Below are positions 832-35,801 of a DNA stretch of 37,823 bases, piece after piece. The position numbers were made by a program, and so were the translations under genes. How positions within the stretch are numbered: position 1 is the first letter of the stretch; every line of letters starts with the position of its first letter. The DNA comes from a virus (taxonomy: Duplodnaviria > Heunggongvirae > Uroviricota > Caudoviricetes): the IMG/VR virus record IMGVR_UViG_2917855067_000005, one strand, 5' to 3'. Under the pieces are notes generated by a model, which ran no database searches, was not told where the DNA came from, and saw nothing but the letters and a program-made list of their open reading frames with translations.

Positions 832-1387
832 TCATTTATCTCCGACCGGAAACTTCTTATACAGTGTCGATATACCAACATCATAGATGATCGCCACCTT
901 CTGGCGAGGAACGCCTGATGCAATTAATCGCCCGGCCTGAACCCATTGTTCTGGTGTAAGTTTGGGACGACGTCCACCAATTCGTCCCTGTGCGCGAGCA
1001 GCTTCCAGTCCAGCTTTTGTTCGTTCAACAATCAGTTCTCGTTCCATTTCAGCCAAGGCCCCCATCACATGAAAGAAAAAACGTCCCATCGGTGTGCTGG
1101 TATCAATAGCATCCGTCAGGCTGCGAAAATTAACGCCACGTTCGCGCAACTCCTCAACCAGAATGACCAGATGCCGCATACTACGCCCCAGCCGATCCAG
1201 CTTCCAGACAACCAGAGTGTCACCTTCCGATAATGTCCTGAGCAGTTTTTTTCAGTCCCGGCCTTTCGGACTTTGTACCGCTTATCTTGTCTTCAAAAAT
1301 CAGCTCGCATCCTGCACAGTTCAGCGCATTACGTTGTAGATCTGTGTTCTGGTCATTTGTTGACACACGTACATAGCCAATAAGCAT
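832..1387 (-). CDS. Serine DNA invertase (Gin/Pin/Hin/Cin family), interrupted by a 1-nt frameshift in a T7 run (plus 1246..1252)
   Basis: Track ORFs 1220..1423 and 832..1179 together read MLIGYVRVSTNDQNTDLQRNAL ... GDTLVVWKLDRLGRSMRHL ... FFFHVMGALAEMERELI; removing one A from the run restores one frame. Confidence 0.88.
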
Positions 1388-1441
1388 GGTAGATCTCCCT
1401 GACAAAAGCAGGAATGATGCCATTTGCTCGTTATTTCTGCA

Positions 1442-1467
1442 TTTTCATAAACGTTGGTTTGGGAGAA
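1442..1467. other. Invertase crossover site (gix/pix/hix-like), core TT
   Basis: TTTTCATAAACG-TT-GGTTTGGGAGAA: two 12-bp imperfect inverted half-sites around a 2-bp core; right half is the reverse complement of the left half of the site at 3288..3313. Confidence 0.7.
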
Positions 1468-1812
1468 GCGGCAAAAAGGAATGTGGGGACAGGAGAAAAT
1501 CAGGTACCGGATATGAAGAGCTTTGGTAATTCATTGACCGCCAATGGATACCAGAAATTACCTGGGGGGATGATTATTCAATGGGGGAGTTTTTCTGTCT
1601 CACCAACCGGAGGAAGTGTTGGAACAGTTGATATAACATTACCTGTAGCTTTCCCTGCTGCTTGTCGTTCGGTAAACGCTCTTATTTCAACTAATGATCC
1701 TTCTGCCCGTTCTGTGGGCTTTGATATTGGAAGTACCAACAGAACTAAAATCAGATTTACTTACACTTCTGCTACAACAAATTCAATTTACTGGATGGCT
1801 GTGGGGTATTAA
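1456..1812 (+). CDS. Alternative tail-fibre C-terminal cassette (Sv'-like), promoterless in this orientation
   Basis: Frame through the crossover site encodes NVGLGEAAKR...; shares GLGE with the fibre gene at the other site, so inversion would fuse it to the constant N-terminus. Confidence 0.6.
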   Translation, partial: GLGEAAKRNVGTGENQVPDMKSFGNSLTANGYQKLPGGMIIQWGSFSVSPTGGSVGTVDITLPVAFPAACRSVNALISTNDPSARSVGFDIGSTNRTKIRFTYTSATTNSIYWMAVGY

Positions 1813-1814
1813 CT

Positions 1815-2246
1815 ATGGAAAAGACATATTATTTTAATCCCTCTGATTCGGGATTTTATATTTCACCAGATAGTCAAACCATTCCTGAGAACGCTACGAA
1901 AATAAACTTTACTATTTATTCTGAGTTCGCAGGAGTTGCATGGCCTGATGGTAAAATACTTGGTTCAGATAAAAATGGTTTTCCAGCATGGCAGGATGCG
2001 CCACCACTTACCAGCGAAGAATTAATCACAATCGCTGAATCAAATAAACAGCGATTAGTTAATCAGGCCAACGAATACATGAACAGTAAGCAATGGCCCG
2101 GTAAAGCCGCTATTGGTCGTCTGAAAGGCGAGGAACTGGCGCAATATAATCTGTGGCTGGATTATCTGGACGCACTGGAACTGATTGATACCTCCAGTGC
2201 TCCAGATATTGAATGGCCTACGCCCCCGGCAATTCAGGCCAGATGA
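1815..2246 (+). CDS. Alternative tail fibre assembly protein (Tfa')
   Basis: 143-aa ORF directly after the alternative fibre cassette; C-terminus ...DIEWPTPPAIQAR resembles the other Tfa C-terminus (DVIWPELPGA). Confidence 0.7.
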   Translation: MEKTYYFNPSDSGFYISPDSQTIPENATKINFTIYSEFAGVAWPDGKILGSDKNGFPAWQDAPPLTSEELITIAESNKQRLVNQANEYMNSKQWPGKAAIGRLKGEELAQYNLWLDYLDALELIDTSSAPDIEWPTPPAIQAR

Positions 2247-2820
2247 CATCCGGCGCTGTGCTGGTATCTGTTGCCGTCACCGCGTCAATGTAATCCAGCA
2301 CAGCGTTAAGTCTGGTTGTTTCTGCCTGCGTCAGTTTACGTCCGGCCTGCAATTTCAGTTGAATCAGACTGATGGAAGCCATTGCTGCATCAATCAGTGA
2401 CTGGCGCTGTGCTTCTGCCGCTTCTACTGCGGCACCGTGTTGTGCCTCAGTATCTGTCACCCATTTATCACCATCCCATTTATCGTATGGCGTTGACGGG
2501 GCGAGAGTGGTTGTATTTTCAGGGTAATCACCCGGAGTTTTGATTTCTTTTGATTCCCCTGTTTCGGTGCTATAGACAATTTCACCACGATGGTCTGACA
2601 CATATTCCCATGATTTTAAATCCACAGAACGGCAAATTGTATAACCAGCCTTATGTGTACCAGGAGCGTCTAAACAGGAATATGCCGGAATACCGACGCC
2701 CACAGCAAGATATTCAGTTGATGCAGAAATATATTCCCGCGTCTCACTGTCATAGTTGTAAACGATAATGTTTCCTTCCTGCACGGCAATAAGTTCGTTA
2801 TTTAATACCGCGTGATTCAT
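2218..2820 (-). CDS. Tail fibre assembly protein (Tfa/Mu U-like)
   Basis: 200-aa ORF immediately downstream of the fibre gene; conserved C-terminal ...TSTAPDVIWPELPGA. Confidence 0.82.
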   Translation of the reverse strand: MNHAVLNNELIAVQEGNIIVYNYDSETREYISASTEYLAVGVGIPAYSCLDAPGTHKAGYTICRSVDLKSWEYVSDHRGEIVYSTETGESKEIKTPGDYPENTTTLAPSTPYDKWDGDKWVTDTEAQHGAAVEAAEAQRQSLIDAAMASISLIQLKLQAGRKLTQAETTRLNAVLDYIDAVTATDTSTAPDVIWPELPGA

Positions 2821-3590
2821 TATGCTGCCCTCACAATAAAGTTAAATGCAATATTGCGCGGTCGTGTTTCGCTCCCGCCCGTGTTACCAATACTTCCTCG
2901 TGAATGCAACCTCGGAGCCGGAATAAGGGTTCCCCCTGTATAAACGGCGTCAAGCCCCCGACCTTGTGTGTATGTATTCTGAAAAATTGTAGCCAGCTCC
3001 CATTCTTCACCTGAATCATAACCATCGTTGGCAACAACAATATGGCGGTGCTTCTCCAGCATCCCAGCCTGAATGCTCAATAAAGCACGCCCTGCATCAA
3101 TACCACGTCCGTCATCCCATCCTCGAATAAACTCACCGCGTAAATCCAGCAGTTTCCCTGACGGGTATGCTTTGGCAAGGTTAGGATATTTCACCTTATC
3201 AAAGGCAGCACCATTGCATTTCAGCCAGCCTGTTGGCGGAGTGGCTGAAGGCCACGGAATCGGTACACCAACAGGCAATGCAGAGCCTTCTCCCAAACCA
3301 AGGTTTTCGAGAGCCGTTTTCACCGTGCCATCCGATTTGATATCACCAAACGGATTCTTGCGGCTTAACAGCAGCGCACGAAGCGCGGTAAGCAACTGGT
3401 CGTTTCGCCCCTTCTCCAGGCTGGCACCGGATGCCTCCACCACGCCACAAAGCTCTTCCTGCAACATGTCAAAGTAGTCATCATCCAGATCGGTAGCAGG
3501 CGTGCCGGTCTGGGGGTTACCACGGGTAAAACCGTTCTTACCCGCGCCGAACTTATCCTTCTGCGCGGTTTTCGTGTCTATACGATGCAT
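2820..3590 (-). CDS. Tail fibre protein (constant N-terminus plus currently expressed variable C-terminus)
   Basis: 256-aa [24 protein letters not shown]...; crossover site lies inside it at the GLGEG codons (3288..3313). Confidence 0.82.
3288..3313. other. Invertase crossover site, core AA (inverted relative to 1442..1467)
   Basis: TTCTCCCAAACC-AA-GGTTTTCGAGAG inside the tail-fibre gene. Confidence 0.7.
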
Positions 3591-3593
3591 GAA

Positions 3594-4179
3594 TTACTCC
3601 GGATATTTAAAAATTACGTAGGTATGCGACGGGCAGAGTTTGTTAAGCACACACTCGATAACGGTGTCGCCCCAGATACGCAGTGCGGAATCACAGGGAT
3701 CGCCACATGTCATCCAGGTGGTGTTGGTGGCGGCTGGCATGTTGACCTGCCAGTAATACCGCCATTCCGGGCGCATTCACCGCGTCAGTACAGGCAGATG
3801 AGCAGGTGAACGTGCTTTTGTCGTATCGCGTGATGGTGGCGTCTGGTCTGCCCAGGGCAGCAAGCTGTGCAAGGTAAAAATCCTCATTGATGCCGCCCGC
3901 CAGATTAACCTTCGCATCCAGCCGTTGCTGACGCTGGCGAAGGGTCTGCGTCCCTGCCGGAATACATTCATCCGGCAGGCCGCACAGACGCTCCCAGCGG
4001 TTTATCAGTTCGGTGGTTGTGCGCGGATCCAGCTCCCGCATCAGGGCATCCGCACGCTGATGAACGCGGGTTAATGACGGTGCCGCACCGGCAATCGCCG
4101 GATCGCTGGCTGACCACGCCGGACCGGGGGGCAACAGTGCCGACAACAGACGGATGTAATCATCGTTTGTCACGTCCAT
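3594..4179 (-). CDS. Mu gp48/YmfQ-like tail protein (DUF2313-like), interrupted by a 1-nt frameshift at GGG 3769..3771
   Basis: Track ORF 3691..4179 continues in another frame as ...[37 protein letters not shown] (3594..3776); dropping one C joins ...[13 protein letters not shown].... Confidence 0.72.
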
Positions 4180-5228
4180 GAAATCGTCCCCAGTACCGCC
4201 AGTTCATTTTTTGCAATGGAGATATTGTCCGCCGGTGCAAGCAACTGATGGCTGTATTCCCCGTTCGCACCGGAAATCGCTTCACTGATACGTGACACCT
4301 TCAGTTCTCCCTGCGGATAACCATCACGCAGCAGGAACGAACGCAACTCCGCGGTAATGGCAGCCCGTATTTCTGGTGTGTCCGGCGTCACGCGGATATG
4401 AAAATCCACCGTATGTGCCACCGGCCTGAATACATACAAATCAGAGCCTGCCACCGGGGCCAGTGGCCCGATATGTTGTCTTGCTGCCGTTTCCGTTGAT
4501 TCTTCCGGAATGGGATTAATCAGGTCACTGCTGGCAATCATCACACCGACAGTTCCCGTTCCCATCCAGTGACGGTATGTCCATGCGCGGGTAATGCCGG
4601 GCACTTCTTTAGCCCAGACGACATAGTCCCCGTCAGCCCCGCCCTGAGGCGTCCAGTAATACCGCTCAATGACGCGGGCGCGCCACGTGTCCAGCTCTTC
4701 AGTATCAAATCCACCTGTCAGGGTATCTGCCTCGCCAGAAGACGGCAGACCATTCACCGGCGTGACCAGGATTAATGACGTACCGTCGTCAGCATTACCG
4801 ACCGCGCCTGCACTTGAGCAGGCGATCGGCACGCGCAGGACACCACCTGTGCTGGTTGCATCGGCAGTTGCCGTGTACTGAACCAGGTCATCGCGCTGAA
4901 TAACACTTCCGGCGGTCACCTTCAGGCCATCGCTGACACCTTCCCAGCGCATATACCCGCTGGCAGCCGTGGCCCCCTTGCGCGGACACCGTTTCATCGC
5001 AGCATGTCGCGCCAGCCAGGACTCATCGCACAGGTCAGGCAGCATGTTCATTGCCAGATAATCGATGTACCCGTAAACCGTATGCAGCGCCGCCGCATAC
5101 ACCTTTGCCCGCACGTCTTCATCCATGCGCCGGAGCGTGTCGCTGACGTCCAGCCTGGCGAATAAATCGTTACGGAGCATACTGATATTTTCTGCCAGCG
5201 TCGGGCGCTGAAATTCACTGTCCGCCAT
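4170..5228 (-). CDS. Baseplate J-like protein (Mu gp47-like)
   Basis: 352-aa ORF in conserved position within the Mu-like baseplate gene order; family call from memory. Confidence 0.8.
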
Positions 5229-5643
5229 GCGTTATCGCACTCCACAGATCATCAAAAGAAATCATTACCGGTCCGTCACGACGCCAGAGAGTGATACTGT
5301 TACCCAGTTCATTAATTCCGGTGCGGCGGATATCCAGATCAATACGGGACACCACGCCGTCATCAATCATCCATTGCAGGCATTCGCGGATATACCCCCT
5401 TACCGTCTGCACCAGCTGATTGGTCAGTTTGCTGCGCTGAAGCAGCCACAGTCGGGAGCCGTAACGGTCATTCTGTACCGCAGGCCAGGTATCCCCCCAC
5501 CATCCCATCGGGACGTCGGCGTTGTCATCAGGCTCCGCCCGCCGCCAGGTAAACAGGGAAATCACCACGGCGCGGGTCAGCGGATCCAGCGGTGCGCTGG
5601 CGCAGGTGCGTTTACCGTTCACCGTCAGCCACAGTTCCATCAT
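5215..5643 (-). CDS. Phage GP46-family baseplate protein
   Basis: 142-aa ORF between baseplate V-like and J-like genes; overlapping starts and stops typical of the module. Confidence 0.65.
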   Translation of the reverse strand: MMELWLTVNGKRTCASAPLDPLTRAVVISLFTWRRAEPDDNADVPMGWWGDTWPAVQNDRYGSRLWLLQRSKLTNQLVQTVRGYIRECLQWMIDDGVVSRIDLDIRRTGINELGNSITLWRRDGPVMISFDDLWSAITHGGQ

Positions 5644-6188
5644 GCCTCCATCGCTTTATCAGGTTTGTCGGTGTTACTGCCCTGACCGTTCTCTCTGTGA
5701 CGATGCCCGTTATAGGCAAGCCGCATCGCTGACATGGTGGTGCCGGTAGAGTCGCACATGTCTTTCACCTGCCCCGTCACTTCCAGATCCATTTCAAAAC
5801 GTGCTTTAGGTGAATTGCGAAACGTGATCGTTTTACCTGCACCGTCCACCACGATCCCCTCCCGGGTCAGCGTCACGGACTGCCCCTGATCGTCATAGAC
5901 AGCCACCTCACCCGTATGCAGCCCTTTCAGGCGGTAGCGCCGGTCCGACACCGTAACAACCACCGCATGAGAACGGTCGCCATCCGGAAACAACACCACC
6001 GCTTCCGCACCGCTGTTTGCCCTTGCGGTAAAACCGTAGGGTTCAAGATGTTCAACCCCGGCTTTGGGTTCACCGGCAATCAGGGACACATCCACGGTCT
6101 GACATTTCGTGGCGGCACTGATGCTTTTCACCACTGCCCGCCCAATCAGGCCGAGGAGTTGTCGCTGCATGGCTTCAATCGTCCTCAT
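5640..6188 (-). CDS. Baseplate assembly protein V / spike (Mu gp45-like)
   Basis: Track ORF 5640..6278; likely start at MRTIEAMQRQLLG (6188) just after the upstream stop; position in module. Confidence 0.65.
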   Translation of the reverse strand: MRTIEAMQRQLLGLIGRAVVKSISAATKCQTVDVSLIAGEPKAGVEHLEPYGFTARANSGAEAVVLFPDGDRSHAVVVTVSDRRYRLKGLHTGEVAVYDDQGQSVTLTREGIVVDGAGKTITFRNSPKARFEMDLEVTGQVKDMCDSTGTTMSAMRLAYNGHRHRENGQGSNTDKPDKAMEA

Positions 6189-7266
6189 CAGAACGGGTCC
6201 TCCTGTACTCTGGCTTTTTTCTTTTTCCGCGCGCGGGGGCTTCGGGTTCAGGCAGATAAGCATCAGGCGGGCCGACACGGATTTCCGTCAGTGTGCCATT
6301 CTGGTCCTGAGTAAACGTGACTTCCGAGACAAGCAGTTCGGTATTGTCGAAACCACAGACCGGATCGAAGACAATCACCCGCTGGTTGGGCTGCCACAGC
6401 GTACCGTTACCCTGTCGCCAGCCCTGCACCACATAGGTGGTTTCATCCGTCCGCGCCGCCCGTTGCCGGGCTTCAAAGTCAGCACGCGCAATACAGCCTG
6501 CCCCCGTAGCCTGCCCTGTCTGCCTGATATACATCGGACGGTAACGGGCAATAAATGCGTCCTCTGTGCGGGCCCGCAGCGCGGTGGTGGTGGCCTCACC
6601 GAAATCATCGTCGTTTCCGGCACGCTGCCCCGCCACCTGGTAAACTGAAAACCGCTCCCGGATACTCTTCTCCGTATCACAGGAAAGGATGTTTTCCCCG
6701 AGTACCAGCGCGGTATGTGCCCGCGTTGAGCCAATACCGCCAATCACCAGCCTGCCGTGCGGGTCGTCATAAGCCAGCGCCTGCTGCTGACCGAGTATTT
6801 TGTTGATCACCTCGATCACCGTTTCACCGTGATCAGGCTGGACATCAGGAATAACACCCGACGGCGCACCGCTGTTCACCACCTCAATGCCGAAAGGCGC
6901 AGCAAGCGCCTGCGCAATCTGTACCAGCGATCGTCCGTTAAACTGTGTCGGTTCGGCTGCACAGTCAATCAGGTCAGCAGTCAGACTGCGCCCGGCAATA
7001 CCAGTGCTGACCGAACGGGCATCGTAACGGACGGGCGTCGCCTCCACCCAGCCGGTGATCACCAGCTCATCACCAATCAGCACTTCCACTTTTGAACCGT
7101 TTTTAATGCGCGGCTGAAGCGTGGTGATACCCTCATCTCCCGGCCACTGTCGGGTGATCTCCACACTGAAATCCCGCGCCAGCCGTTCAATACCGGCACC
7201 GATGCGCACCGATGTCCAGCCATTCCACTCCCGGCCATTTACCCGTAGCGTGACATTGTCGTTCAT
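6175..7266 (-). CDS. Mu gpP-like tail/baseplate protein
   Basis: 363-aa ORF between DNA-circulation-like and V-like genes. Confidence 0.65.
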   Translation of the reverse strand: MNDNVTLRVNGREWNGWTSVRIGAGIERLARDFSVEITRQWPGDEGITTLQPRIKNGSKVEVLIGDELVITGWVEATPVRYDARSVSTGIAGRSLTADLIDCAAEPTQFNGRSLVQIAQALAAPFGIEVVNSGAPSGVIPDVQPDHGETVIEVINKILGQQQALAYDDPHGRLVIGGIGSTRAHTALVLGENILSCDTEKSIRERFSVYQVAGQRAGNDDDFGEATTTALRARTEDAFIARYRPMYIRQTGQATGAGCIARADFEARQRAARTDETTYVVQGWRQGNGTLWQPNQRVIVFDPVCGFDNTELLVSEVTFTQDQNGTLTEIRVGPPDAYLPEPEAPARGKRKKPEYRRTRSDEDD

Positions 7267-8591: not shown

Positions 8592-8606
8592 ATAAACTCC
8601 GGATAT

Positions 8607-8632
8607 AAAAAAAACCCGCCGAAGCAGGTTTT
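8607..8632 (-). terminator. Intrinsic terminator downstream of the lipoprotein moron
   Basis: Minus-strand RNA AAAACCUGC-UUCG-GCGGGUUUU followed by more U: 9-bp stem with one G.U pair, UUCG tetraloop, U-tract. Confidence 0.7.
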
Positions 8633-8645
8633 AATAAATTATCTA

Positions 8646-9323
8646 TTATCTAAAGTTACTTATTACGCGATACCTTATGCTTTGGTTACTCGCATCAAGT
8701 ACTTCGAATTTAGCGCCTTTATAGCCAATTGTTTTAGACTCCGCGAGATCATACTCAACATCGTTGTTGAAGGCCGGGCGCGCTGTATTCGCTGAAAATT
8801 CACGATATCCAATGTTGATTTTGTTTCCGACCCTTCCGTTGTAAAGCAGAGCTTGCTGGAAAGATGAGTCACCACTGATGTTCAGATTAACCTTTTCGAT
8901 CGGCATGTTGGTTTCACAGGTGGTAGCGCCAAAAACTGTTATTACACATAAGGCATTATTTTTCTTTTCTACCATGATGCCCTGCCACATATCGGCAAGA
9001 GCTGCCTTTTCCACATTGGCTGAATCAGCACCGTTTGTGAGAAAGTAATAATCTGCCTTGTTATCCTCACCAACCTTTTTCAGCATCCCCGGAGTAATCG
9101 TATAAGCCCAGGAAACTCTCGCGGGAGCATTAACCTTCAAACCTTCGAACTTCTGTGACTCACCCTGCTTAATCATCGAATCACCGACATAAGCTGTATT
9201 AATGCTTCCTACAGGAGGCTCACTATAACTTTCTGTTTTTGGTAAATAATTATACTTCGGAGATGTACATCCCCCGAGTAAAAGAGCCATGCCGACAACT
9301 GAATAAATTGTTAGAATTTTCAT
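8646..9323 (-). CDS. Lipoprotein of unknown function (moron; candidate superinfection-exclusion or surface protein)
   Basis: Signal peptide MKILTIYSVVGMALLLGGC with lipobox-like LGGC (start chosen at this Met inside track ORF 8646..9365); visibly AT-rich; own terminator. Confidence 0.68.
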   Translation of the reverse strand: MKILTIYSVVGMALLLGGCTSPKYNYLPKTESYSEPPVGSINTAYVGDSMIKQGESQKFEGLKVNAPARVSWAYTITPGMLKKVGEDNKADYYFLTNGADSANVEKAALADMWQGIMVEKKNNALCVITVFGATTCETNMPIEKVNLNISGDSSFQQALLYNGRVGNKINIGYREFSANTARPAFNNDVEYDLAESKTIGYKGAKFEVLDASNQSIRYRVISNFR

Positions 9324-9404
9324 ATCCCTATTCCCATCATTAAATAATCGGACTAATCCTACCAAGAATCAGCAAAACGACAAAACCCGTACTTAAGCTG
9401 GCTA

Positions 9405-11185
9405 TTAGCCCCCCATACCAAACCGGGTGTAACCAACGTCGTGATTCACGTCGATACCACTGGAGCGGGTATCGGTCACCCGCATCCCGGGAGGCGCATC
9501 CTTAAACGAGACCGTAATCTCGCCTTCAGCCTTCTTCGGCGCAGCCTGAACTATCTGATACGGATTGTATCCCTGAGCAGAAACGCCTGTACCGTACGCC
9601 CCATAGCCACCGGTACCCCACTGAGTCGCATTGGCTGAAACCACCGTGTCGCTGGCACCATCAGTAAACCACTCAATAATTGGCTTCAGCTTGTCCCACA
9701 TATCCTGAAACCACTTAACAACCGGCCCCCAGTTATTGATCACCATCCCCAGCGGCGACCAGGCAAAAACTTTCTTAAGGAGTTCCCAGCCAGCCTCAAA
9801 ATAAGGACCAATGGTTTCCCAGAGTTTCTTAAAATAAGGCCCGACAACATCCCAGTTAGTGATAATTAATCCCGCAGCCAGGCTATCGCCGTCGCAATCA
9901 TGCCAATCGGCGTCATCGACATGCTCCTGCTGACAATACTGATGGCACCGCCAACGCCCATCAATCCCAGTTTCAGAATCGCAAGACCGGCAGCAAGCCC
10001 GACGACACCGCGAATAACCCGGGGATTTTCATCCGCAAACTTCGTGAATTTCTCCCCCAACTCCCCCAGCCATTGCGTGATATTTTTAGCGTCACCAGAA
10101 AATGCGCCGCCAATAGCCGCAAGGCCGTTAGTTGCGGTCCCCGTCATTGCCTCCCACAGGTTGGACAGCGTACCAAGCTGGGCCTGAACACGTTTATTCA
10201 GGCTGGCCTGTTTATTCATCTTCTGCTGGATCTGATCGTAGCCATCCTTTCCTTTATCGATTAGTGCATTGACCACCTGAAGGGTTTCGGCATCATCACC
10301 AAATATTGCCTTAAGTACACCTGTTCGCTTAACGTCGGTCAGTTTTCGCAGCTTTGCCAGTTGCCTGAACATGTTATCAAGACCGCCAAAACTTCCTTTG
10401 CCGTCAGTAAAATCGAGCTGTACCCCGAGTTTCTGGCGGGCCATGACTTTATTGACGTCCCTGATTTTCTTAACGCTTAATCCGGACTGGATAACTTTTC
10501 GCAGGGCGTTACCTGCCGACTCCCCGTTCATCCCCATCTGATCCATCATGACGCTGATGGGGGCAAGGCTCTGTGCAGCCTGAAGACCGTCCTTGTTCAC
10601 CATCTTCAGAACAGAGCTGGTTTTAGTGAAGAAGGACAACATGTTGGTATCGTCAACGCCCAGATAAAACGCCTTCTGGATAGTGTCGAACAGCCCCATC
10701 ATGTCTTCTGACGCCGTTCCGGTAGCATCCTGCATCTTTGCGGCAAACTCGGCAGCCGCTTCCGGTGTTTTTTTCAGTTGTACCGCAAGATAAGCTGTCG
10801 CTTTACCCACACCGCCAAGAATGTTTTCTGCCGGGATCCCCTGACGCACCAGCATCTGCATCATGTTCTGGAAATCAGCCGTTGTACCGGGTAGCTGGTT
10901 ACCCAGGCCAATAGCCAGTTTATTGATGTCCTGAAAGCTCTTTCCAACCTCGCCGTTCGCATCCATCATGGCGACTTTCAGCCCGGTGGCGGCGTTTTCC
11001 TGATCGGCATAAGATTTCAGGGAAAGCGTCAGACCCGCTGCCAGTCCGCCCCCAAGCGCCAGCCCACCCTGTGACGCTTCTTCCGCCTGGCGTTTAAATC
11101 CCCGGATTTTCTTTTGCATTTTCGACAGCGCGGGAGAAAGCCTGTCGACACCGGTGATCAACGCCTTAAGCTCAAATTCAGCCAT
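9405..11185 (-). CDS. Tail tape measure protein, interrupted by a 1-nt frameshift near 9881..9882
   Basis: Track ORFs 9866..11185 and 9405..9746; downstream frame stays open across the junction (...LAAGLIITNWDVVGPYFKKLW...) with repeated W-rich motifs; one extra C restores ...AIALAAGLIITNW.... Confidence 0.78.
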
Positions 11186-11345
11186 GTGTGCGTTTCTCCT
11201 GCTCTATCCTGTTTGCCTGACTGACCAGCAAGGGAATTTCACTGATCGGCATATTCAGCAATTCGAAGGGATTAATGCGCCAGTAGCTGGCGCAGTCAAA
11301 GAAGCGATCAGTGAGGTATTCAGCCGTCAGGCCTGGAGGAAAAAA
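11178..11345 (-). CDS. Frameshift extension of tail assembly chaperone (GT / E+E'-like product)
   Basis: 60-aa ORF in the -1 frame overlapping the chaperone 3' end; slippery heptamer T_TTT_TTC at plus 11339..11346. Confidence 0.55.
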   Translation of the reverse strand, partial: FFPPGLTAEYLTDRFFDCASYWRINPFELLNMPISEIPLLVSQANRIEQEKRTHG

Positions 11346-13448: not shown

Positions 13449-13610
13449 CGGTGTTCACCTTTTTATTCACGCGCCGGATATCACCCGCTGCTTCACGGCG
13501 CAGCCAGTAGTTGTTCTCGTCAACATTTCGCCCTTCGGCGGGCAAAAAGTCACCGCGGGCAGGGTCAGGCACTGACCGCCCTTTAACAGGTTTCACAAAC
13601 ATGAAGATTC

Positions 13611-18914: not shown

Positions 18915-20647
18915 TTAAAGCGAGCGGATCCCGTAGGACTCAATGTGGTCAGACAGCGTGTCTTCTTTCTCGTACAGCATGGCTCTGCCAACCGCCATAA
19001 TCAGCGCAACTGCACCATCGATTTTGTTTTCCGCCTGCTCTTTGACGGGTTTCACCACATCATCGTTACCCGGAATGGTTTTTCCGACCACGTTGCCGAT
19101 ACACCAGGTCATGATGGGATTGCCATCATGATGAAAGCGCCCCGATTCAATTGCCGCTTCCAGCTCTTTCATCGGGTCGGACATGTTGGTGTAGTTCTGA
19201 ATGATGGTGACGGGGTTCAGGTCTTCATCAGCAAGGTCATGTGACAACCCGGTCGCCCCGAAGGGGTCGATGGGTGACTCGCTGACCGGGCTGATTTTGT
19301 TCGCCGCTTTGGCCTCTTCGAGGATGTAGCGATAATCCACCTCTGCACCATCGGTAACGGTCAGGACGCCCATTTCCACCCATTTCTGAAAGCGTTCGGC
19401 TGTCCGGCGATCTTCATTTTTCTCGACGCTATACACCGTGTCATACGGTACCCAGAAACGCGGGGCCACACTGTAGTAATGCGTTTTACCGTCAATCTCG
19501 CGGGTATAAAGTCGCGCCATGCTGTTCATATCCAGCTTACGCGCCAGGTCAAAGGCCAGAATGCACGGCTGCCCCTCGAACTGCTCAAGAGTCAGTGATT
19601 TATCCTCGCAGCTCTGCCAGCTCACCAGGTTGAAATACGCCGAACGCGCCGACACCCAGATATTGAGGTGTTTTGTTTTAAAGACGTTTGCCAGACGGGC
19701 GTTATTTTTCGCACGCTGCTGCTGACTTAACAAAAATTCGCGATAAACCGACACGCCAATATTTGGATTGGCTTTTTCCAGCACCTGCGGGTCGGTCCAG
19801 TCGTCACCTTCATCAACGGTATAGATGATCCCGAACAGTTCATCGTTAGGCACCGAGCCGTTGAGCATCTCGATGACTTCCCGCCGTTTGTCGTAGCACG
19901 GCCCCTCAATGTTGTACCCGGCGGTAGTGATAGCCCACATCAGTGGCTGACGTCGCGCCCCCATCCCGGTAAGCATCGTGGTGTAAAGCGCATCTGTGGC
20001 GTGCTCGTGATATTCATCCACCACCGCACAGTGGGGTGATGAACCATCACCGGGGTTACCGATCAGCGGTTCAAAACGCGCACCATCCTCCGGACGGTTC
20101 ATGTTTGAGGCGTTAACCTCAATCCCGAACGCTTCCGTCAGCATGGGTGTGCGTTTACACATCAGTCTTGCCGGACGAAAGACTTCCCATGCCTGTTTCT
20201 CCGTCGTGGCACCGGAATACACTTCCGCGCCGAACTCGTTATCACAGGCAAAACAATACAGGCGACACCGGCAGAGATTGCCGATTTGCCGTTCTTACGG
20301 GGGATTTCGGTATACACCTCCCGGAAGCGGCGCAGCCGGGAGCCTTTATTGACCCAGCCAAACGCGCAGCAGATCACAAAGAGCTGCCACGGCTCCAGCG
20401 TGATGGGCATCCTCTTAAATGCCCACTCACCCTTGGTGTGCGGCAACAGCTGAATAAATTTGGCGGCCCGTTCAGCCAGGTCCTTGTCGAAGCGGTAACG
20501 AAACGACTTACTTTTTTCCGCCATCAGGTCATCAAGATGGCGCTGGCAGGCCTGAATCACAAACTGGCAGGCCACAATCTTTCCGCGCACGACATCCCGG
20601 GCATACTGATTGGCAGCATTTACGTTGGGGTAAGATTTCCGGCTCAT
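18915..20647 (-). CDS. Terminase large subunit, interrupted by a 1-nt frameshift in an A4/T4 run (plus 20250..20253)
   Basis: Track ORFs 20162..20647 (N-terminal, [12 protein letters not shown]) and 18915..20222; adding one T gives a continuous ...[21 protein letters not shown].... Confidence 0.85.
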
Positions 20648-21137
20648 GATTCGATGATTTTCAGAAACGGGTTAGTGGCTTTCTTCTTCCCCGCCAGGCC
20701 AATCAGACGCTGGCGGCTGCTGGGGTCGAGTCCGAGCATTGCCCCCGTACTGCTCATCTCGGACTCCTGTTCTTTTTGGCGGTCAGCTCCGGATTTTTGA
20801 CCATACCGCCCATTGCACCGGTGATGGTGTTGCCCTGTCTGGCAATATTTTTCACGGCACGTCGCCAGAACTCGTAGGCCACGCACCACCGCTCAAGCAC
20901 CGCGAGGTCAGTCACGCACAGCAGGCCCTGACCGCAGAGTTCTTTAGTTGTCAGTTGCCACATGATCGTAGCGAGAGGGAGATCTTCTTCAGCGAACCAC
21001 TCCGGTGGCTCAACACCTTTGATGGGCGTAAAAACAGGTTCATCTTTATTCAGGGCTCGCTTGCCGGGGTTTCCGGCCAGCGCCTTGCGCGCCGTTGGCT
21101 TGGGGCGACGCCCGGAACGCCCCGCCGTTCCAGCCAT
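20644..21137 (-). CDS. Terminase small subunit (P27 family), interrupted by a 1-nt frameshift in a T5 run (plus 20773..20777)
   Basis: N-terminus [30 protein letters not shown] with AGGAG RBS; C-terminal ...[11 protein letters not shown]... lies in the other frame (20644..20889); one extra A joins ...TAKKEQESEM.... Confidence 0.75.
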
Positions 21138-21261
21138 ATGCGGCACTCCTGGTTAAATTTCATTTTTCGCGGGTATAAAAAAACGATGGGGCGGGCAGTC
21201 CTGAAGGCGTCAGGTCACAGGGATTTGACCCGCCCACCCCTCTGGCAGTGGAAACTGGTTC

Positions 21262-23991: not shown

Positions 23992-25026
23992 ATGACTGCA
24001 TCAGCGACCCCCACTAATATCACTCATAAGTTTATTGTTCACATTATGAACAAGGAACAACAGGGGTTAGCCACCATTATTCCTTGTCCTTCAGAAAAAC
24101 CTGTTCAGCAAGCATCAAAAGACCTCTCTAACGCACTTACTGAAAGGTACTCTGGGAGAGCAGGTAAAGGATATGGGAAATTTGAAGATGACCGCGATAG
24201 TTACCCTATGGGTAATATCGTTGATGATTATTTCGTAAATAAAACACATAGTTTTTATGATACTAGTATCCGAATGATCAATCATTTAAAAGCCAGAGCC
24301 GATGATGAATCAATGTCTACTGGTGGTTATGTAATAATTGCCCATAATGAGGTAAATGGAAATCATTATTTGATGGTTGCAATCCTAACTTCAGCAGTTG
24401 GCTCTTCAGTCCACGATTTTGAAATTCAAGAAAGTGAATATCTAGACATTGCTAAACTTCGAGTAGCGGGACGAATTGACTTAACTGGGCGCCAGAATGG
24501 CAAAGAGAGATATATTAGCTTTCTAAAGGGGCAAAATTCAGTAGCAGGTTATTTCAAAAAGTTTTTAGGTTGCAACGATATTCTAATTGCCAAACAAGAA
24601 ACAACAAAATTACGGAATGCACTTTTAGAATTTGCTACTGAAAGAGGTTTTGAACCAGAGGCACGTGAAGAGTTCCTAAATAAGGCTCATGAAAAATTAA
24701 AAAATTTAAATCGTTCTGGTGAAACTTTCGACACTCAAATTTTTGCAAACGAGATATGGCCAACTGCTCCTGAGTTGTTAGTTGAAAAGTTAACCAATGA
24801 CGATCTGGAGTTCTCTGATGGGTTCGTGCCTGATGGCAACGTTATACGTGGGCTTGTTAGTTTCAAAGGAAAGTCCAAACATTGGTCTCTGAAATTCGAG
24901 CGTGCGGCCTTGCATGATGGCAGCGTTCTTTATGATTCAGAAAACGATAAATTGATACTTACCGAGATTCCGGATACGCTAAGATCAGAGATTTTATCAG
25001 AATTAGGTGAAGAGGATGAGCAGTAA
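23992..25026 (+). CDS. Nucleoid-associated protein YejK/NdpA-like (NA37 family) homolog, phage-borne
   Basis: 344-aa ORF with AAGGA RBS; central region GGYVIIAHNEVNGNHYLMVAILTSAVG ... YLDIAKLRVAGRIDLTGRQNGKERYISFLKGQNSVAGYFKKFLG parallels my recollection of E. coli YejK; visibly AT-rich. Confidence 0.68.
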   Translation: MTASATPTNITHKFIVHIMNKEQQGLATIIPCPSEKPVQQASKDLSNALTERYSGRAGKGYGKFEDDRDSYPMGNIVDDYFVNKTHSFYDTSIRMINHLKARADDESMSTGGYVIIAHNEVNGNHYLMVAILTSAVGSSVHDFEIQESEYLDIAKLRVAGRIDLTGRQNGKERYISFLKGQNSVAGYFKKFLGCNDILIAKQETTKLRNALLEFATERGFEPEAREEFLNKAHEKLKNLNRSGETFDTQIFANEIWPTAPELLVEKLTNDDLEFSDGFVPDGNVIRGLVSFKGKSKHWSLKFERAALHDGSVLYDSENDKLILTEIPDTLRSEILSELGEEDEQ

Positions 25027-26194
25027 AAATCAGAGAACCTTCAAAGACTTAGTGACTATTTACAAGGCCGCTACATTTGCAGGTACCCTATCTGAAGCAT
25101 CACTCATTCTTTCAAACGAGGAGCTCTGTGACATCATCAACGATATCACAGAGAATCCCCATGATTTTGGCATCACCCTTGAATCTGGCAACATTGAGTT
25201 AGGCCAAACTATAACCTTACATATAACCCCCCCCAAATTACGATTGGGGCAGCTACATTTCTCTTTTAATGAGTATTTAAAAAATCCTAAAAATAGGATA
25301 AAGGAAGCCAGTAACTTCTTTATAATCGAACTTAATTATCACAACAGGGATAAAAAGTCGCCTGCTATTATATCCAAGTACAGAGATGTTTTGAGCTTAA
25401 TTACTTTATTCAAAGATTGTTCTGCTTATTTAGATGAAACAAATTTTGAATTGGTATTCGTCGAATCCAACGTACTAAAAATTCCAGTAAATTATTCTAG
25501 CGATGATCTTATGAATGTTAATGGAGATCTGATTCATAATTTGATCGCAAACTTTGCAGAAGATACGCATAAAGATCAAAAACTTACTATTTTAGCAAGT
25601 AGTATAAAATCATCATGTGAATCTAAAACTAAAGAAACCTCTTTTTCCTTCATGTTAAGGGATTTAGGACAACTTTATGAAAGTTATCAAAAAGGATACA
25701 AAGTATTCGTTTCTGGTTTTTCTTACGAGAAAATACTGGATCAGTTACGAGTAGCCAAAATAGAAGAGATGGGGAAAATACATAAAGTATTCAGTGACAT
25801 ACAAAAATCAGATATTAGGTATCCCCTCGCAACAATTATCGTTGCGACTCAAATGAAGCAGGCTAATGGTTGGGATAGTCAAGCATTAATAAACACAGCT
25901 GTAGTGTTGGGTGCATTGTTCTTCACTATTATGATTATATTTGTTCTATTTAATCAATGGCAAACTTTAACAGCAATAAATGATGAGTTAAATCATAAAA
26001 AACAACAAGCAGAATATAACTTCAAGGCTATTTACGAAGATATAAAGGATACATTTGATAGTTTAACCACAAGATTGCTTGTTCAGAAAGTTGTTTTTGC
26101 CTCATTAGGAATTATAGTTTTATGTGGCTTATATCTTACATTTAGATTCTACTTTTTACTTACACCTTATGCTATTACATATTTATTTATCTGA
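25016..26194 (+). CDS. Hypothetical protein with two C-terminal transmembrane helices (partner of the YejK-like gene)
   Basis: Track ORF from GTG 25007; ATG at 25016 has AGGTGA 6 nt upstream; overlaps the upstream gene; hydrophobic segments NTAVVLGALFFTIMIIFVLF and VVFASLGIIVLCGLYLTFRFYFLL; AT-rich. Confidence 0.65.
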   Translation: MSSKNQRTFKDLVTIYKAATFAGTLSEASLILSNEELCDIINDITENPHDFGITLESGNIELGQTITLHITPPKLRLGQLHFSFNEYLKNPKNRIKEASNFFIIELNYHNRDKKSPAIISKYRDVLSLITLFKDCSAYLDETNFELVFVESNVLKIPVNYSSDDLMNVNGDLIHNLIANFAEDTHKDQKLTILASSIKSSCESKTKETSFSFMLRDLGQLYESYQKGYKVFVSGFSYEKILDQLRVAKIEEMGKIHKVFSDIQKSDIRYPLATIIVATQMKQANGWDSQALINTAVVLGALFFTIMIIFVLFNQWQTLTAINDELNHKKQQAEYNFKAIYEDIKDTFDSLTTRLLVQKVVFASLGIIVLCGLYLTFRFYFLLTPYAITYLFI

Positions 26195-26218: not shown

Positions 26219-26567
26219 TTACCCATGTATTATATATATAACTGCATCAATAAATCCCAATGCAGCTTGCAACTTTTTTCTTATAGTCCCATCAGAGCAT
26301 TTTCTCTTCTTCGCAATAGTGCGTAATGAGATACCGATAACAAAGTGAGCAATGATTAGCTCATATTCTTCAGGCCTATATTTACGCAACCGAGCCACAC
26401 AACTGTCTATCATAATGCCTTCGTCATCATCACACTGAATCCGGGACTTTTTTGCCATGAGGTAAAAGTCCCTTGAAGCCAGCGGCTACCGGTTGCCAGT
26501 CCACTCCGCTATTGTCTGAAGCAGCCCAAGCTCCCCAACGATCCATTACTTCATACATATCACGCAT
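26219..26567 (-). CDS. Q: Late-gene antiterminator Q-like protein, interrupted by a 1-nt frameshift in a T6 run (plus 26448..26453)
   Basis: Upstream frame [40 protein letters not shown] continues in track ORF 26219..26458 ([21 protein letters not shown]...); GGAGAAAG RBS before the ATG at 26567. Confidence 0.68.
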
Positions 26568-30251: not shown

Positions 30252-31193
30252 TCACCCCCTAAATCCTGCCGGGATCTGGCTGTAGTCCACGTTGTCGTAA
30301 CTGGCTTTGAAGTACGGGTCTTCACGTTTTTCTGTGTGCGTGCTGACGGACGGCGATAAGCGCAGGGAAAGCTCATCCCATTTTTCCCGCAACTTCGACG
30401 GGCTGAGCACGTTACGGCACCAGAACGGATCGCGGCTGACGCGGCTGTACATCTCGCAGATTTGTTTGTGAGTACGACCATCCTGCACACACATCAGGCG
30501 AATTTCGTTTGCCCAGGCTGTCCAGTTAGGTTCTTTGGGACGAACCACCTCGCCGTCACATTCGGCGGCCTGCTCGTACAGGGCGATGATTTTTTTCCAA
30601 AGCCACTGTGCGCAGGTCAAATCATCCTGCGTCCCCCACTGGCGCTTTTTAGGGCTGAATACAACCGCATCAGGATGGCGAGTTAAAAAATCCTGTTCAT
30701 CCGTCTGCGTGTCCGGTTGCGAAGCGTCCGGACGAGAAGGTTTTTTATCTGACGGATCATGTTTTGATTTTACTGACGGATCCCCGCCAGATTCTGACGG
30801 GTGAAAACCCGCTTTTTTGCCAGATTTCGACGCATCAAATTTTGACGGGTCAGATTTTGATGCGTCAGATTTTGACGGGTCAGAATCTGACAGTTGAGAA
30901 AATGCCGCTGCCTGAAGCTTCGCAACGTTAAGCTGATAAACATTCGACGCATTGCGGTTACCCTGGCGACGCGCCTTACGCGTTAACCAGCCTTCTGCTT
31001 CCAGCCGTGCGATAGCCGTCCTGACGGTACTCATCCCCGCGCCAATCTGACGGGCAATGGTTTCAATTGATGGCCAGCACACGCCTTCGTCATTACTGAA
31101 ATCAGCTAGGCGGGCCATAATTGCCACGCTGGATAATTTCATGCCTGACGCTGCGCAACCATCCCATACATAGCCGGTTAATTTAGTGCTCAT
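30252..31193 (-). CDS. Replication initiator (lambda O-like; N-terminal HTH, repeat-encoded linker, C-terminal domain)
   Basis: 313-aa ORF; N-terminal HTH (SIETIARQIGAGMSTVRTAIARLEAEGWL); central SDPSKSDASKSDPSKFDASKS linker encoded by iterons. Confidence 0.7.
   Translation of the reverse strand: MSTKLTGYVWDGCAASGMKLSSVAIMARLADFSNDEGVCWPSIETIARQIGAGMSTVRTAIARLEAEGWLTRKARRQGNRNASNVYQLNVAKLQAAAFSQLSDSDPSKSDASKSDPSKFDASKSGKKAGFHPSESGGDPSVKSKHDPSDKKPSRPDASQPDTQTDEQDFLTRHPDAVVFSPKKRQWGTQDDLTCAQWLWKKIIALYEQAAECDGEVVRPKEPNWTAWANEIRLMCVQDGRTHKQICEMYSRVSRDPFWCRNVLSPSKLREKWDELSLRLSPSVSTHTEKREDPYFKASYDNVDYSQIPAGFRG
30745..30895. repeat. Iteron array inside the initiator gene (candidate origin of replication)
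   Basis: At least five tandem approximately 16-bp repeats of the form TCAGATTTTGACGGG / TCAGATTTTGATGCG / TCAGAATCTGACAG. Confidence 0.65.
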
Positions 31194-31541
31194 GACCGAC
31201 CTCTATTTCCCTGAATTTACGACGAAACTGTTCGAGCGGGCTGAAGCACTCATGCTCATAGCCTTCACGGAGGTAGATAACCCGTTGTGTTTCCGGCTCC
31301 CAACGAATGACTCTGACGGGCACTCCGTAGTGATCTTTGAACCAGCGGTTAACTTGTCGCAAAGGACTGTCTCCTTCTGCCGGTTGAAATCACCCACAGC
31401 CCACTCAGCAAAGCTGTGGGTTACAATTTCCCTGTCACCTGGTACATTCACTGCATAGCAATACTCCACCTTCGCTTTTCCACCCGGTACAGGAAGCGCA
31501 ATCAGTTGCGAGCGACGGTAGTGTGTTGTTAAACTGTTCAT
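31183..31541 (-). CDS. Hypothetical early protein, apparently frameshifted near 31355..31400
   Basis: Track ORF 31203..31541 degenerates into S-rich low-complexity text while the -1 frame reads protein-like [42 protein letters not shown]... ending 11 nt into the initiator gene. Confidence 0.5.
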
Positions 31542-31610
31542 GCGTTAGTTTCTCCACAACCAGAAGCAATCGACGCCACGACGCCCGGAGCTGCACACTC
31601 GCGGGCGTCA

Positions 31611-32108
31611 TTACTTTCTGAAATGCAAAAAAATTTTGTAGACAAGTGCTGCATGCTCCTGCAGCTTCGAAATTGAGAGGTACAGCTCGTCGTTAATTGC
31701 TGTCTTCTCATGCGGTTCCACTACACCGTCTTCGATTGCTGAACGAATCTGTTTTGAATAACTGCCGATCTGTTCAATGACTTCCAGCAGACGCTGGTTA
31801 ATATCGGCGTTGTCCACATCCTCGACGTCAGGAAGAGACACAAAGACGCCATTTGCAGACTGCGCCACAGCATCAGCAATGAAGTGAGTGCCACCAGCAC
31901 GCTGTAAAACCATTGCCCATCCCAGCGGGAAAATCTGATCGCCATCTGCACGAAGGCGGTTGAATAAAGCGTTTTCTGTTACATCGAGCCAGTCAGCCGC
32001 TTCAGCGTAACCACCCGGCAACGCCGCGATAGTTTTTCTGACAGCTTTCACGTACCACTCAGGCTGTTTTTCTATTTTCCAGTGATGCTTACCCACGATT
32101 AGCCTCAT
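31611..32108 (-). CDS. Early regulatory protein in the cII position (CII/YmfL-like, tentative)
   Basis: 165-aa ORF immediately downstream of cro; function inferred from position only. Confidence 0.4.
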   Translation of the reverse strand: MRLIVGKHHWKIEKQPEWYVKAVRKTIAALPGGYAEAADWLDVTENALFNRLRADGDQIFPLGWAMVLQRAGGTHFIADAVAQSANGVFVSLPDVEDVDNADINQRLLEVIEQIGSYSKQIRSAIEDGVVEPHEKTAINDELYLSISKLQEHAALVYKIFLHFRK

Positions 32109-33546: not shown

Positions 33547-33952
33547 GATCCCATTCATTTTCGTCAAAATCATCAAAGTGATGAATTTGTGATCTCCAGT
33601 CTCGATAATCTAAAAATTTCTGGGCGGTTACGCTTATTTTATCAAGCGTGAGTTCATCCTGAATTGAAAGAAGAAGTTCATCAAATTTCATCTCATTAAT
33701 CTGTTTTGGCATCCAGTGATGCTTCATCAGAATAAGGTGAACCAGAGCTTTTTTCCCATTCAACTGATTATAGGGAGTGCCGAATTTCTTCCGGTGCTCA
33801 TGTAAGACAAGGTCCAGAAGAGTAAGTAATGTTGCCCTTGATTCAACTTTGCTTATTTCGACTGATGACACTACCCCACTGATTTCAATGCCCCGATACT
33901 TTCCAACATTTTCACAGTGGGATTTGTACAGCGTATAGATATTACCGGACAT
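33518..33952 (-). CDS. Hypothetical protein (AT-rich moron, antisense to the pL operon)
   Basis: 144-aa ORF, visibly AT-rich, convergent with and overlapping the 3' end of the small plus-strand gene; no family recognised. Confidence 0.55.
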   Translation of the reverse strand: MSGNIYTLYKSHCENVGKYRGIEISGVVSSVEISKVESRATLLTLLDLVLHEHRKKFGTPYNQLNGKKALVHLILMKHHWMPKQINEMKFDELLLSIQDELTLDKISVTAQKFLDYRDWRSQIHHFDDFDENEWDPNLSAQYLK

Positions 33953-34238
33953 TTCTTTTCCTTTTGCGTTGTTGGGGATAACCAGATTAACCGAATCCTT
34001 GTTGTTGGGGAATAACCAGGTCCACCTCGCCTGATGTGGCTAAAAGCAGGCACATAACTGCTAAGTATTTTCAACCAGAGAGAATCCTTAGCGTTGTGGT
34101 GAATGCGGCTCAGCGCACGCGGGTTAAGGTTGAGGCTGACAGTCGACCTTCTGTGGATACCCACCCGTCTGGTGTGCAACCTTCGCCAGGCACCGGGAGG
34201 CACCCGGCACCACAACTTTATGCTGTGTGTAGTCTTGA

Positions 34239-34373
34239 CGGTACCAGTTTGTACCCTTGCTTCCGGCTGGTACCGTCCTTTTTACAAAACAGAGAAGAGC
34301 ATCACCGGACGACGGGCTCATAACCCAATCCATCCGGGGCGGCAGTCATCGCAGGTGTTCTTCTCTGTTTTGT
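34239..34373. other. GC-rich non-coding region with two strong inverted repeats (candidate structured RNA or recombination accessory element)
   Basis: Perfect 9-bp inverted repeat CGGTACCAG / CTGGTACCG (34239..34275) and a 16-bp arm pair ACAAAACAGAGAAGAG / TTCTTCTCTGTTTTGT (34284..34299, 34358..34373); only junk-like overlapping ORFs. Confidence 0.4.
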
Positions 34374-34446
34374 GGAGAAACTAACCGACCTTGCAGGGTC
34401 GATATGCAGAGACTGAACAGTTATTGAAGTAATAAGGTGATCGCAT

Positions 34447-34692
34447 ATGCTTCAAATGTTAACTCTTGAAGAATGGGCTTCTGAAAAATACAGAAGTAAT
34501 CCTCCAAGCGTTTCCACGTTGCGTCGTTATGCTAAGCAGAATTTGTTTTGTCCACCGGCAATGAAACAAGGTCGGTTATGGCGAGTGCGTGAGGACGCCG
34601 AGTTAGTTGGAGAGCTGGTAACACCAGTAATTAAGAAAAATGACTCATTACTTTTGCAACGGATTTTGAGTGATGGCAGCCAGACCGCGTAA
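34447..34692 (+). CDS. xis: Excisionase
   Basis: 81-aa ORF immediately upstream of and overlapping int; MLTLEEWASEKYRSNPPSVSTLRRYAK pattern of lambdoid excisionase-like proteins. Confidence 0.7.
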   Translation: MLQMLTLEEWASEKYRSNPPSVSTLRRYAKQNLFCPPAMKQGRLWRVREDAELVGELVTPVIKKNDSLLLQRILSDGSQTA

Positions 34693-35801
34693 GAATAATG
34701 TTTCAGTCCCTAACTTATATCCGCTTTATAGCCGAAAGGTAAATAAAGTCTATTGGCGGTATAAGCATCCAATAACAGGGAAATTCCATGCTTTGGGAAC
34801 AAACGAAACTGAAGCTATCGCTATTGCCACTGAAGCCAATACGCGCCTGGCTGAACAAAGAACCCGGCAGATTCTGGCCATCAGTGACAGGATCGCAACC
34901 AGCAAAGGGAAAGCAATCACAACGTCAACTTGGTTAGATCGCTATCAAGCGATCCAGAATGACAGGCTGAAAAAGTGGTGATATAAAGCTCAACACCTAC
35001 AAGCAGAAAGCCAAACCTGTCTCCTTACTTAGAGAACGGGCAGGATTGAAGCTAATTTCAGCTGTTGATGTCCGGGATATTGCACAATTACTTGATGAGT
35101 ATATTGCCGCTGGGCAACCGAGAATGGCACAAGTAGTTCGCTCCGTCCTGATTGATGTTTTCAAAGAGGCGCAGCACTACGGAGAAGTACCTCCTGGCTA
35201 TAACCCTGCATTAGCTACTAAACAGCCAAGAAGAAAAATTACCCGACAAAGGCTGAGCCTCGAAGAATGGAAAAAAATATTCGATATCGCAGATGCCAGC
35301 CATCGTTACATGGGAAATGCCATGCTGCTAGCCTTGGTTACTGGTCAGCGGTTAGGCGATATTTCACGTATGAAATTTAGCGATATTTGGGATGATCATC
35401 TGCATGTCATTCAGGAAAAAACCGGGAGCAAAATCGCCATCCCGCTTTCCCTGCGCCTCAATGCGATTAACTGGAGTTTGCGCGATGTAGTAGCCCGTTG
35501 CCGTGACTATGCTGTCAGCCCATACCTTGTACATTTTTTTCGTACTACTTCACAGGCTGAACGCGGCGCACAGGTTAAAGCCAATACCTTGACTATGAAT
35601 TTCAGTAAAGCAAGAGATTTAGCAGGAATTGACTGGGGTGAAGGTTCTCCCGCAACATTTCATGAACAAAGGTCTTTATCAGAACGTTTGTATAAAGAAC
35701 AGGGTTTAAATACACAAAAATTACTTGGTCATAAAACACAACAACAAACCGATCGTTATCATGACGATCGAGGCAAGGGATGGAGCAAAGTAGCGTTGTG
35801 A
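34670..35801 (+). CDS. int: Tyrosine integrase (lambda Int family), interrupted by a 1-nt frameshift in an A5 run (34980..34984)
   Basis: Track ORFs 34670..34981 (arm-binding N-terminus) and 35046..35801 (catalytic domain ... HEQRSLSERLYKEQ ... LLGHK ... DRYHDDRG); removing one A gives ...NDRLKSGDIKLNTYKQ.... Confidence 0.85.

Follow-up and report, generated by a model that had tools for sequence, protein, structure and literature searches.

Single-base indels in the genes of an SfV/e14-like prophage of Escherichia cryptic clade II strain E3356 are very probably Ion Torrent assembly artifacts

The viral record IMGVR_UViG_2917855067_000005 is a stretch of 37,823 nt (the window; positions below are window coordinates unless stated otherwise), and a single temperate prophage accounts for nearly all of the recognizable genes between positions 832 and 35801. 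The head and tail module of this prophage (approximately 3100-21500) has 96.7-97.4% nucleotide identity to the Shigella phages SfII, SfI, SfIV, and SfV and to Escherichia phage vB_EcoM-689R6, and over its whole length the element is 96-98% identical to prophages that many E. coli chromosomes carry. Pfam matches and the annotation of homologous loci identified HK97-type head genes together with Mu-type sheath, tube, and baseplate genes. In annotated relatives the genes run in the order pinE, tail fibers, Mu-like baseplate, tape measure, sheath and tube, HK97-like head, terminase, lysis, Q, replication, the ymfL/T/K immunity region, xisE, and intE, followed by icd, and the element agrees with intact relatives in both gene order and length. 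The icd gene lies beyond the int end of the window, with intE and xisE adjoining it, and a duplicated 3' fragment of icd, 54 aa in length, is located about 700 nt before window position 1. Judged by its gene content, the element couples an e14-type module for integration to a virion module of the SfV type.

We mapped 53 proteins from two intact relatives onto the window by tblastn and placed the breaks by nucleotide alignment to at least four intact relatives. Forty-odd genes gave single full-length matches at 92-100% identity, the exceptions being a few variable tail-fiber, HNH, and lysis genes. Eight genes, namely pinE, ymfQ, the tape measure gene, the genes for the large and small terminase subunits (TerL and TerS), Q, ymfL, and intE, were each recovered as two abutting matches in different frames (Table 1). 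The preliminary description of this DNA had held that at least eight genes are split by single-base indels, most of them in short homopolymer runs, and that changing one base rebuilds a full-length protein; all of this was borne out by the protein mapping and the alignments. With one base repaired, the open reading frames (ORFs) of the eight genes, in the order given above, are 184, 194, 593, 577, 164, 115, 185, and 375 aa long, exactly the reference lengths, and the tape measure of E. coli PigCaeca_1 is likewise 593 aa long.

Table 1. Genes and intergenic runs of the window that carry, or were considered to carry, one-base indels, with the corresponding state in relatives.
Feature	Coordinates	Strand	Indel in the window	State in relatives and remarks
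pinE DNA invertase	832..1387	-	one T gained in T7, 1246-1252; frames -2/-3	T6; insertion seen against four relatives (L001, L007, L022, L023)
ymfQ / Mu gp48-like baseplate gene	3594..4179	-	one G gained in GGG, 3769-3771	GG
Mu gp44/P-like baseplate gene	6175..7266	-	one C fewer at 6234	last ~17 codons altered; 363 aa instead of 359
Intergenic A8 run	8607..8614		A8	A7 in the one alignable relative; A8 also in the Logan assembly; status uncertain
Tail tape measure	9405..11185	-	one G lost at GG, 9881-9882	GGG or GAG
Large terminase TerL	18915..20647	-	one base lost at GG, 20261-20262	GGG or GAG
Small terminase TerS	20644..21137	-	one T lost in T5, 20773-20777	T6
Intergenic CCC run	21233..21235		CCC	CCCC in nearly all relatives
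392-aa hypothetical cargo gene	25016..26194	+	two compensating indels 20 nt apart: A gained in 25803-25807, G lost after the C-run 25823-25826	
Antiterminator Q	26219..26567	-	one T gained in T6, 26448-26453	T5
ymfL early gene	31538..32096	-	one A gained in A7, 31627-31633	A6
intE integrase	34673..35801	+	one A gained in A5, 34970-34974	A4

The window contains 12 private one-base indels in 37.8 kb, ten of them in coding sequence. Eleven lie in runs of 2-8 nt, and the remaining one stands beside a C4 run. Seven are insertions and five are deletions, which agrees with the earlier statement that the errors go in both directions. High-quality relatives at 2-3% divergence served as a control: among themselves they show 0-1 one-base indels per 11.5 kb, without any split in a conserved gene, and the 12 private indels of the window are above this background. 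Comparison with closely related prophages had been proposed as a check on the splits, and the relatives carry intact run lengths at all eight gene sites.

The sites first listed for pinE, ymfQ, the tape measure, TerS, and Q were the exact runs of Table 1, while three others needed correction. The terminase lesion is present, but not in the A4 run at 20250-20253 where it had been placed; the missing base is 8 nt away. An A5 run is likewise the site of the integrase lesion, although at a position 10 nt from the one proposed (34980-34984), which is approximately where the premature stop falls. An interrupted early gene also exists, in the form of ymfL, whereas the region first suggested for it (about 31355-31400) has no indel relative to any relative, and the DUF4222 gene there (31183-31362) is intact. 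The two compensating indels of the 392-aa gene, visible in the alignment to relative L001, and the two intergenic indels had not been listed previously.

Several further candidates were rejected. The Mu gp44/P-like baseplate gene was considered as a ninth broken gene, but the exact 363-aa protein and near-identical RefSeq forms (WP_223571428.1, WP_005134763.1, and WP_408627968.1) exist in E. coli and Shigella, and we regard it as a natural allele. The G4 run at 34336-34339 appeared to be a private lesion in comparison with two relatives (L001 and L002), but it is common to three more (L011, L014, and L015) and represents a natural polymorphism that varies between G3 and G4. The small hypothetical ORF in which this run lies (34036-34384, plus strand) carries the label "frameshifted" in the annotation of two complete E. 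coli genomes and may not be a real gene. Finally, a 225-aa ORF (8646-9323) and a 113-aa ORF (9405-9746) could have been further pieces of a longer tape measure, but E. coli PigCaeca_1 has a separate 225-aa gene in addition to its 593-aa tape measure.

An exact-protein look-up of the 392-aa gene, followed by alignment, identified the source of the sequence: the window is 100% identical over 21 kb to contig PDIE01000019.1 of GCA_004745295.1. The accession PDIE00000000 belongs to Escherichia cryptic clade II strain E3356, from sediment of Hong Kong's intertidal zone, and the draft was assembled with MIRA plus SPAdes from Ion Torrent single-end reads of 35-400 nt at 40x coverage, with no second platform (PMC6639607). 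By exact-protein look-up the truncated tape measure and integrase products occur in one other place only, the Logan contigs of run SRR6148328, and this was likewise the only run with the truncated Q product.

Compared with the window over 33.7 kb, the Logan contigs of SRR6148328 have no substitutions and eight one-base differences, seven of which concern run length. At five positions (pinE, ymfQ, ymfL, and both indels of the 392-aa gene) the Logan contig agrees with all of the intact relatives and the window departs from them, so that the Logan assembly encodes intact pinE (184 aa), ymfQ (194 aa), and ymfL (185 aa). At the other three, the T-runs at 4212, 20513, and 26280, it is the Logan contig that departs from the relatives and the window that agrees with them; these errors, private to the Logan assembly, change the C-terminal end of baseplate protein J and break TerL and Q at new places. 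The comparison shows directly that the disruptions of pinE, ymfQ, and the early gene ymfL are not supported by the data. The two assemblers differ in run length about every 4 kb without a single disagreement over a base, as expected of reads whose weakness lies specifically in the length of runs. The two assemblies most likely share the same Ion Torrent reads, and because they probably do, their agreement on the five remaining gene lesions carries little weight. For the tape measure, TerL, TerS, Q, and intE, we infer error from the character of the lesions and from the state of the repaired genes.

For seven of the eight genes, the repaired protein has a counterpart in another genome that matches it at every residue. 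Proteins identical to the repaired forms of TerL, TerS, and ymfL were each found on at least 1000 contigs, that of ymfQ on 852, that of Q on 256, and that of intE on four; repaired intE (375 aa) is identical to ENR7872374.1 and EOV4411119.1. The frameshifts come with no private amino acid change. Real frameshifts would have to be very recent, because there is no amino acid substitution in approximately 1800 codons; in E. coli, base substitutions reportedly outnumber indels by about 10:1. The 53 mapped genes are all present and, the one-base indels aside, complete in length; among them we found no nonsense codons, no larger frame-breaking indels or deletions, and no IS elements; every lesion is a gain or loss of one base. 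Neither the mixed lesion spectrum of a cryptic prophage nor its private substitutions were seen here.

The lesions also have a bias in composition. Six of the seven insertions are of A or T and four of the five deletions are of C or G (one-sided Fisher P ~0.045), with two of the C/G deletions in 3-nt runs, one in a 4-nt run, and one affecting a single G beside a C-run. Ion Torrent data contain high-frequency indels about every 1-2 kb of reference, mostly of a single base and taking the form of A/T insertions or C/G deletions; those that are strand-asymmetric fall mostly in runs of 2-3 nt, and assemblies acquire frameshifts from such indels (Bragg et al. 2013, PMC3623719). The insertion and deletion bias of the window matches this published signature. 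In type, the lesions shared by both assemblies resemble those on which the assemblies disagree: in both sets A/T is gained and C/G is lost in short runs. Genomes sequenced on Ion Torrent are over-represented among those excluded from RefSeq for "many frameshifted proteins".

Some of the same lesions recur in other assemblies. The 161-aa N-terminal fragment of TerL was found in one other place among approximately 15 billion proteins, run SRR6148342, which is numbered 14 after SRR6148328. The prophage in that run is a different one, 98% identical to the window and 99.3% identical to E. coli strain 20, and its TerS is intact. The extra base in TerL is present in all of the approximately 14 relatives sequenced elsewhere, and between the two lesion-bearing TerL alleles there are differences at 12 downstream sites. 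For this recurrence a context-specific platform error is the simplest explanation, the alternative being a defective allele that circulates locally. The truncated TerS (127 aa, with T6 read as T5) occurs on at least 29 contigs; among the ten places shown, six have other broken genes within a few kilobases, and one comes from a 2010 run. A 55-aa Pin fragment in which T6 is read as T7 occurs on 30 contigs, and the T6 run of TerL at 20512 is shortened in five of the assemblies with truncated TerS as well as in the Logan contig. The T-runs at 20773-20777, 20512, and 1246-1252 appear to be generic, recurrent error hotspots.

Contig PDIE01000019.1 extends into host DNA on both sides of the prophage. 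These flanks are 87-96% identical to E. coli, a divergence that fits an Escherichia other than E. coli. On the icd side, purB has T4 (locus L018, ~2509-2512) where nine of nine E. coli comparators have T5, and it was not called as a gene; with one base restored, its product is identical to the protein WP_130205591.1 from Escherichia sp. E14S1. The Logan assembly contained the intact PurB protein and no truncated purB fragments, suggesting that the gene is intact there. About 21 other host genes that were checked are intact, the check being made at the protein level because the min-side flank is only ~87% identical to E. coli. The single host frameshift matches the rate of the errors confined to the window assembly (5 per 33.7 kb), and other core genes of the E3356 draft are likely to be affected as purB was.

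Essentially all of the disruptions are, very probably, artifacts of Ion Torrent assembly, and the prophage is probably intact; we do not regard the gene interruptions as a biological feature. This reading joins four observations: the sequencing platform, the lesions themselves, the loss of five of the 12 indels in the second assembly, and the identity of the repaired proteins with known intact ones. Ion Torrent sequencing infers run length from a pH signal, mis-calls homopolymers, and gives indels at high frequency at specific sites. At 40x single-end coverage some run-length errors would win the consensus, and each of these would shift a reading frame, after which the annotation pipeline would drop the gene as a pseudogene. 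The seven indels common to both assemblies would be errors carried by the majority of the same reads. Homopolymer sequencing error had been the preferred explanation from the start, and the platform, the second assembly, the exact matches of the repaired proteins, and the purB lesion all lend it support.

Three sets of facts weigh against this conclusion. First, seven of the 12 indels are present in both assemblies (those of the tape measure, TerL, TerS, Q, and intE and those at 21233 and 8614), and if the Logan run came from an independent library, the shared indels would favor real mutations; membership of SRR6148328 in SRX3260348 is not confirmed, the link to the same strain being drawn from the run number and the match with zero substitutions. 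Second, most Ion Torrent errors of this type do not come up again from one run to the next (Bragg et al. 2013, PMC3623719; PMC12046094), and because published errors are mostly run-specific, the TerL lesion in a second run fits uneasily. Third, approximately 13 kb of host coding sequence contain one frameshift where about four would be expected at the prophage rate (Poisson P ~0.07), and the prophage may carry an excess of lesions.

The rival that survives best is a mixed one, in which the lesions of pinE, ymfQ, ymfL, the 392-aa gene, and purB are errors and those of the tape measure, TerL, TerS, Q, and intE are genuine, very recent slippage mutations. We consider it unlikely, and what credence we keep for it is kept mainly because the host lesions are fewer than the prophage rate predicts. 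It would account for the reproduction of five gene lesions in both assemblies. The rate of window-only errors already covers the single host frameshift, which leaves the shared lesions as a possible excess specific to the prophage, and the TerL lesion, being common to another strain of the same sediment study, could be one allele spread by recombination. If this were the case, the prophage would be grounded, with no excision, late-gene activation, DNA packaging, or tail building. The agreement of assemblies that most likely use the same reads is not independent, however, and the shared indels are of the same type as those that are demonstrably discordant. The repaired forms of TerL, TerS, Q, and intE are exactly identical to proteins elsewhere, so that four to six independent frameshifts would be needed without one amino acid substitution. 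Nonsense codons and deletions are absent among the mapped genes, and the lesion-bearing TerL alleles differ at the 12 downstream sites. It is accordingly improbable that the five shared lesions are genuine; if they were, a full-length prophage of a rarely sampled lineage would have been immobilized very recently by a burst of slippage without substitutions, and a defective TerL allele would be common to different prophages of co-occurring sediment strains.

That all of the lesions are genuine, as in a decaying cryptic prophage or in a mismatch-repair-deficient mutator host that accumulates homopolymer indels, is very improbable. Cryptic prophages at icd are known, e14 of K-12 being one, and the lesions are spread across the element with a coding share (10/12) close to that of random placement. 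The second assembly nevertheless contradicts five of the lesions by having the sequence of intact relatives there, and the spectrum consists of indels only in genes whose repaired products have no private substitutions. A mutator would bring several transitions for each indel, and a real purB frameshift would make the isolate a purine auxotroph. Functional frame changes, either programmed ribosomal frameshifts or phase-variable homopolymer switches, are hardly credible: the sites are homopolymers, and Pin-type systems and tail fibers are linked to switching, but every relative, including the isolated phages SfII, SfV, and vB_EcoM-689R6, has each of the eight genes as one continuous ORF, and the runs are short (2-7 nt) and sit in the middle of genes for enzymes.

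The artifact reading can be set beside published cases of Ion Torrent error (Bragg et al. 2013, PMC3623719; Listeria platform comparison, PMC12046094). The features in common are single-base indels only, at about one per 3 kb here, A/T insertions and C/G deletions, many of them in runs of 2-4 nt, the resulting frameshift and pseudogene calls, and results that depend on the assembler. In contrast to those cases, a second assembler gave seven of the 12 indels again here, one is found in a further run where published errors are mostly run-specific, and the density is far above the ~0.8% of loci affected in recent SPAdes assemblies of Listeria (PMC12046094).

Among known phages, SfV, SfII, SfI, and SfIV of Shigella and vB_EcoM-689R6, with their HK97-like heads and Mu-like contractile tails, share the head and tail gene order of this element. 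They differ from it in having all genes intact, in integrating elsewhere, and in carrying O-antigen modification genes, whereas the element described here has an e14-type intE/xisE at icd and different cargo. The cryptic prophage e14 of E. coli K-12 has the same integration site, integrase, excisionase, and ymfK-ymfT-ymfL immunity region, as well as a Pin invertase with an invertible tail-fiber segment. Unlike e14, a genuinely deleted remnant of 15 kb, this element is full length (~41 kb), with one-base indels as its only lesions. Beneath those lesions there is probably a complete and probably inducible SfV/e14-like temperate prophage of ~41 kb in icd of Escherichia cryptic clade II strain E3356.

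Next to pinE, an inverted repeat of 20 nt with 95% complementarity (1449-1468, AAACGTTGGTTTGGGAGAAG; 3287-3306, CTTCTCCCAAACCAAGGTTT) flanks a 1.86-kb segment that contains two alternative tail-fiber C-termini and their assembly chaperones. The segment is in the opposite orientation in two of the aligned relatives (L007 and L023). From this arrangement, it looks like an invertible host-range segment of the e14, Mu, or P1 type.

The end of the prophage beyond pinE (window positions 1-774, plus strand) encodes an intact 257-aa LEM-3-like GIY-YIG protein with a full-length match to the PADLOC anti-phage defense model PD-T4-3 (E = 2.4e-137). At the other end, between intE and icd and within the integrated element, the minus strand from 35952 to 37823 and beyond (locus L018, 7445-9991) encodes a DUF2357 protein of 623 aa and, beside it, a protein of 848 aa. 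In many E. coli the two show 100% conservation, and some relatives have an McrB-like AAA protein nearby; the DUF2357 protein had no PADLOC match.

The 392-aa gene belongs to a block of low GC content (23992-26194, plus strand; 36-39% versus ~55% in its flanks) that separates the lysis cassette from Q and is encoded on the opposite strand. Besides the 392-aa protein, which had no Pfam or PADLOC match, the block encodes a nucleoid-associated protein of the NA37 family. It varies among relatives and is probably a moron or cargo insertion.

On the minus strand, a 60-aa ORF (11178-11360) shares sequence, read in another frame, with the 3' end of the tail assembly chaperone gene (11327-11596). The same arrangement is found in relatives and is annotated separately in ON470584. 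This overlap (11178-11596) is where the conserved programmed frameshift of tail chaperones would be expected, and it is unrelated to the artifacts.

In the host DNA, the min-side flank (locus L006, 1-9300) has only ~87% identity with any genome in a set of 5,426 complete E. coli genomes and contains no ycgH/bluF/bluR/iraM block of the kind seen in the E. coli comparators that were examined. Its divergence is consistent with a host of cryptic clade II.

The main value of these results is as a caution about pseudogene calls in this set of genomes. This assembly gives no ground for calling the prophage defective, cryptic, or "domesticated", and in the 16 clade II genomes of PRJNA412557 the number of pseudogenes is probably overstated in the same manner. 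The recurrence of truncated TerS and Pin products suggests that specific short runs in common phage genes may repeatedly be mis-called, which would seed false fragments in protein databases. Once repaired, the element is a complete phage of the SfV/e14 type with a PD-T4-3 defense gene, in a lineage from which very few phages have been sequenced.

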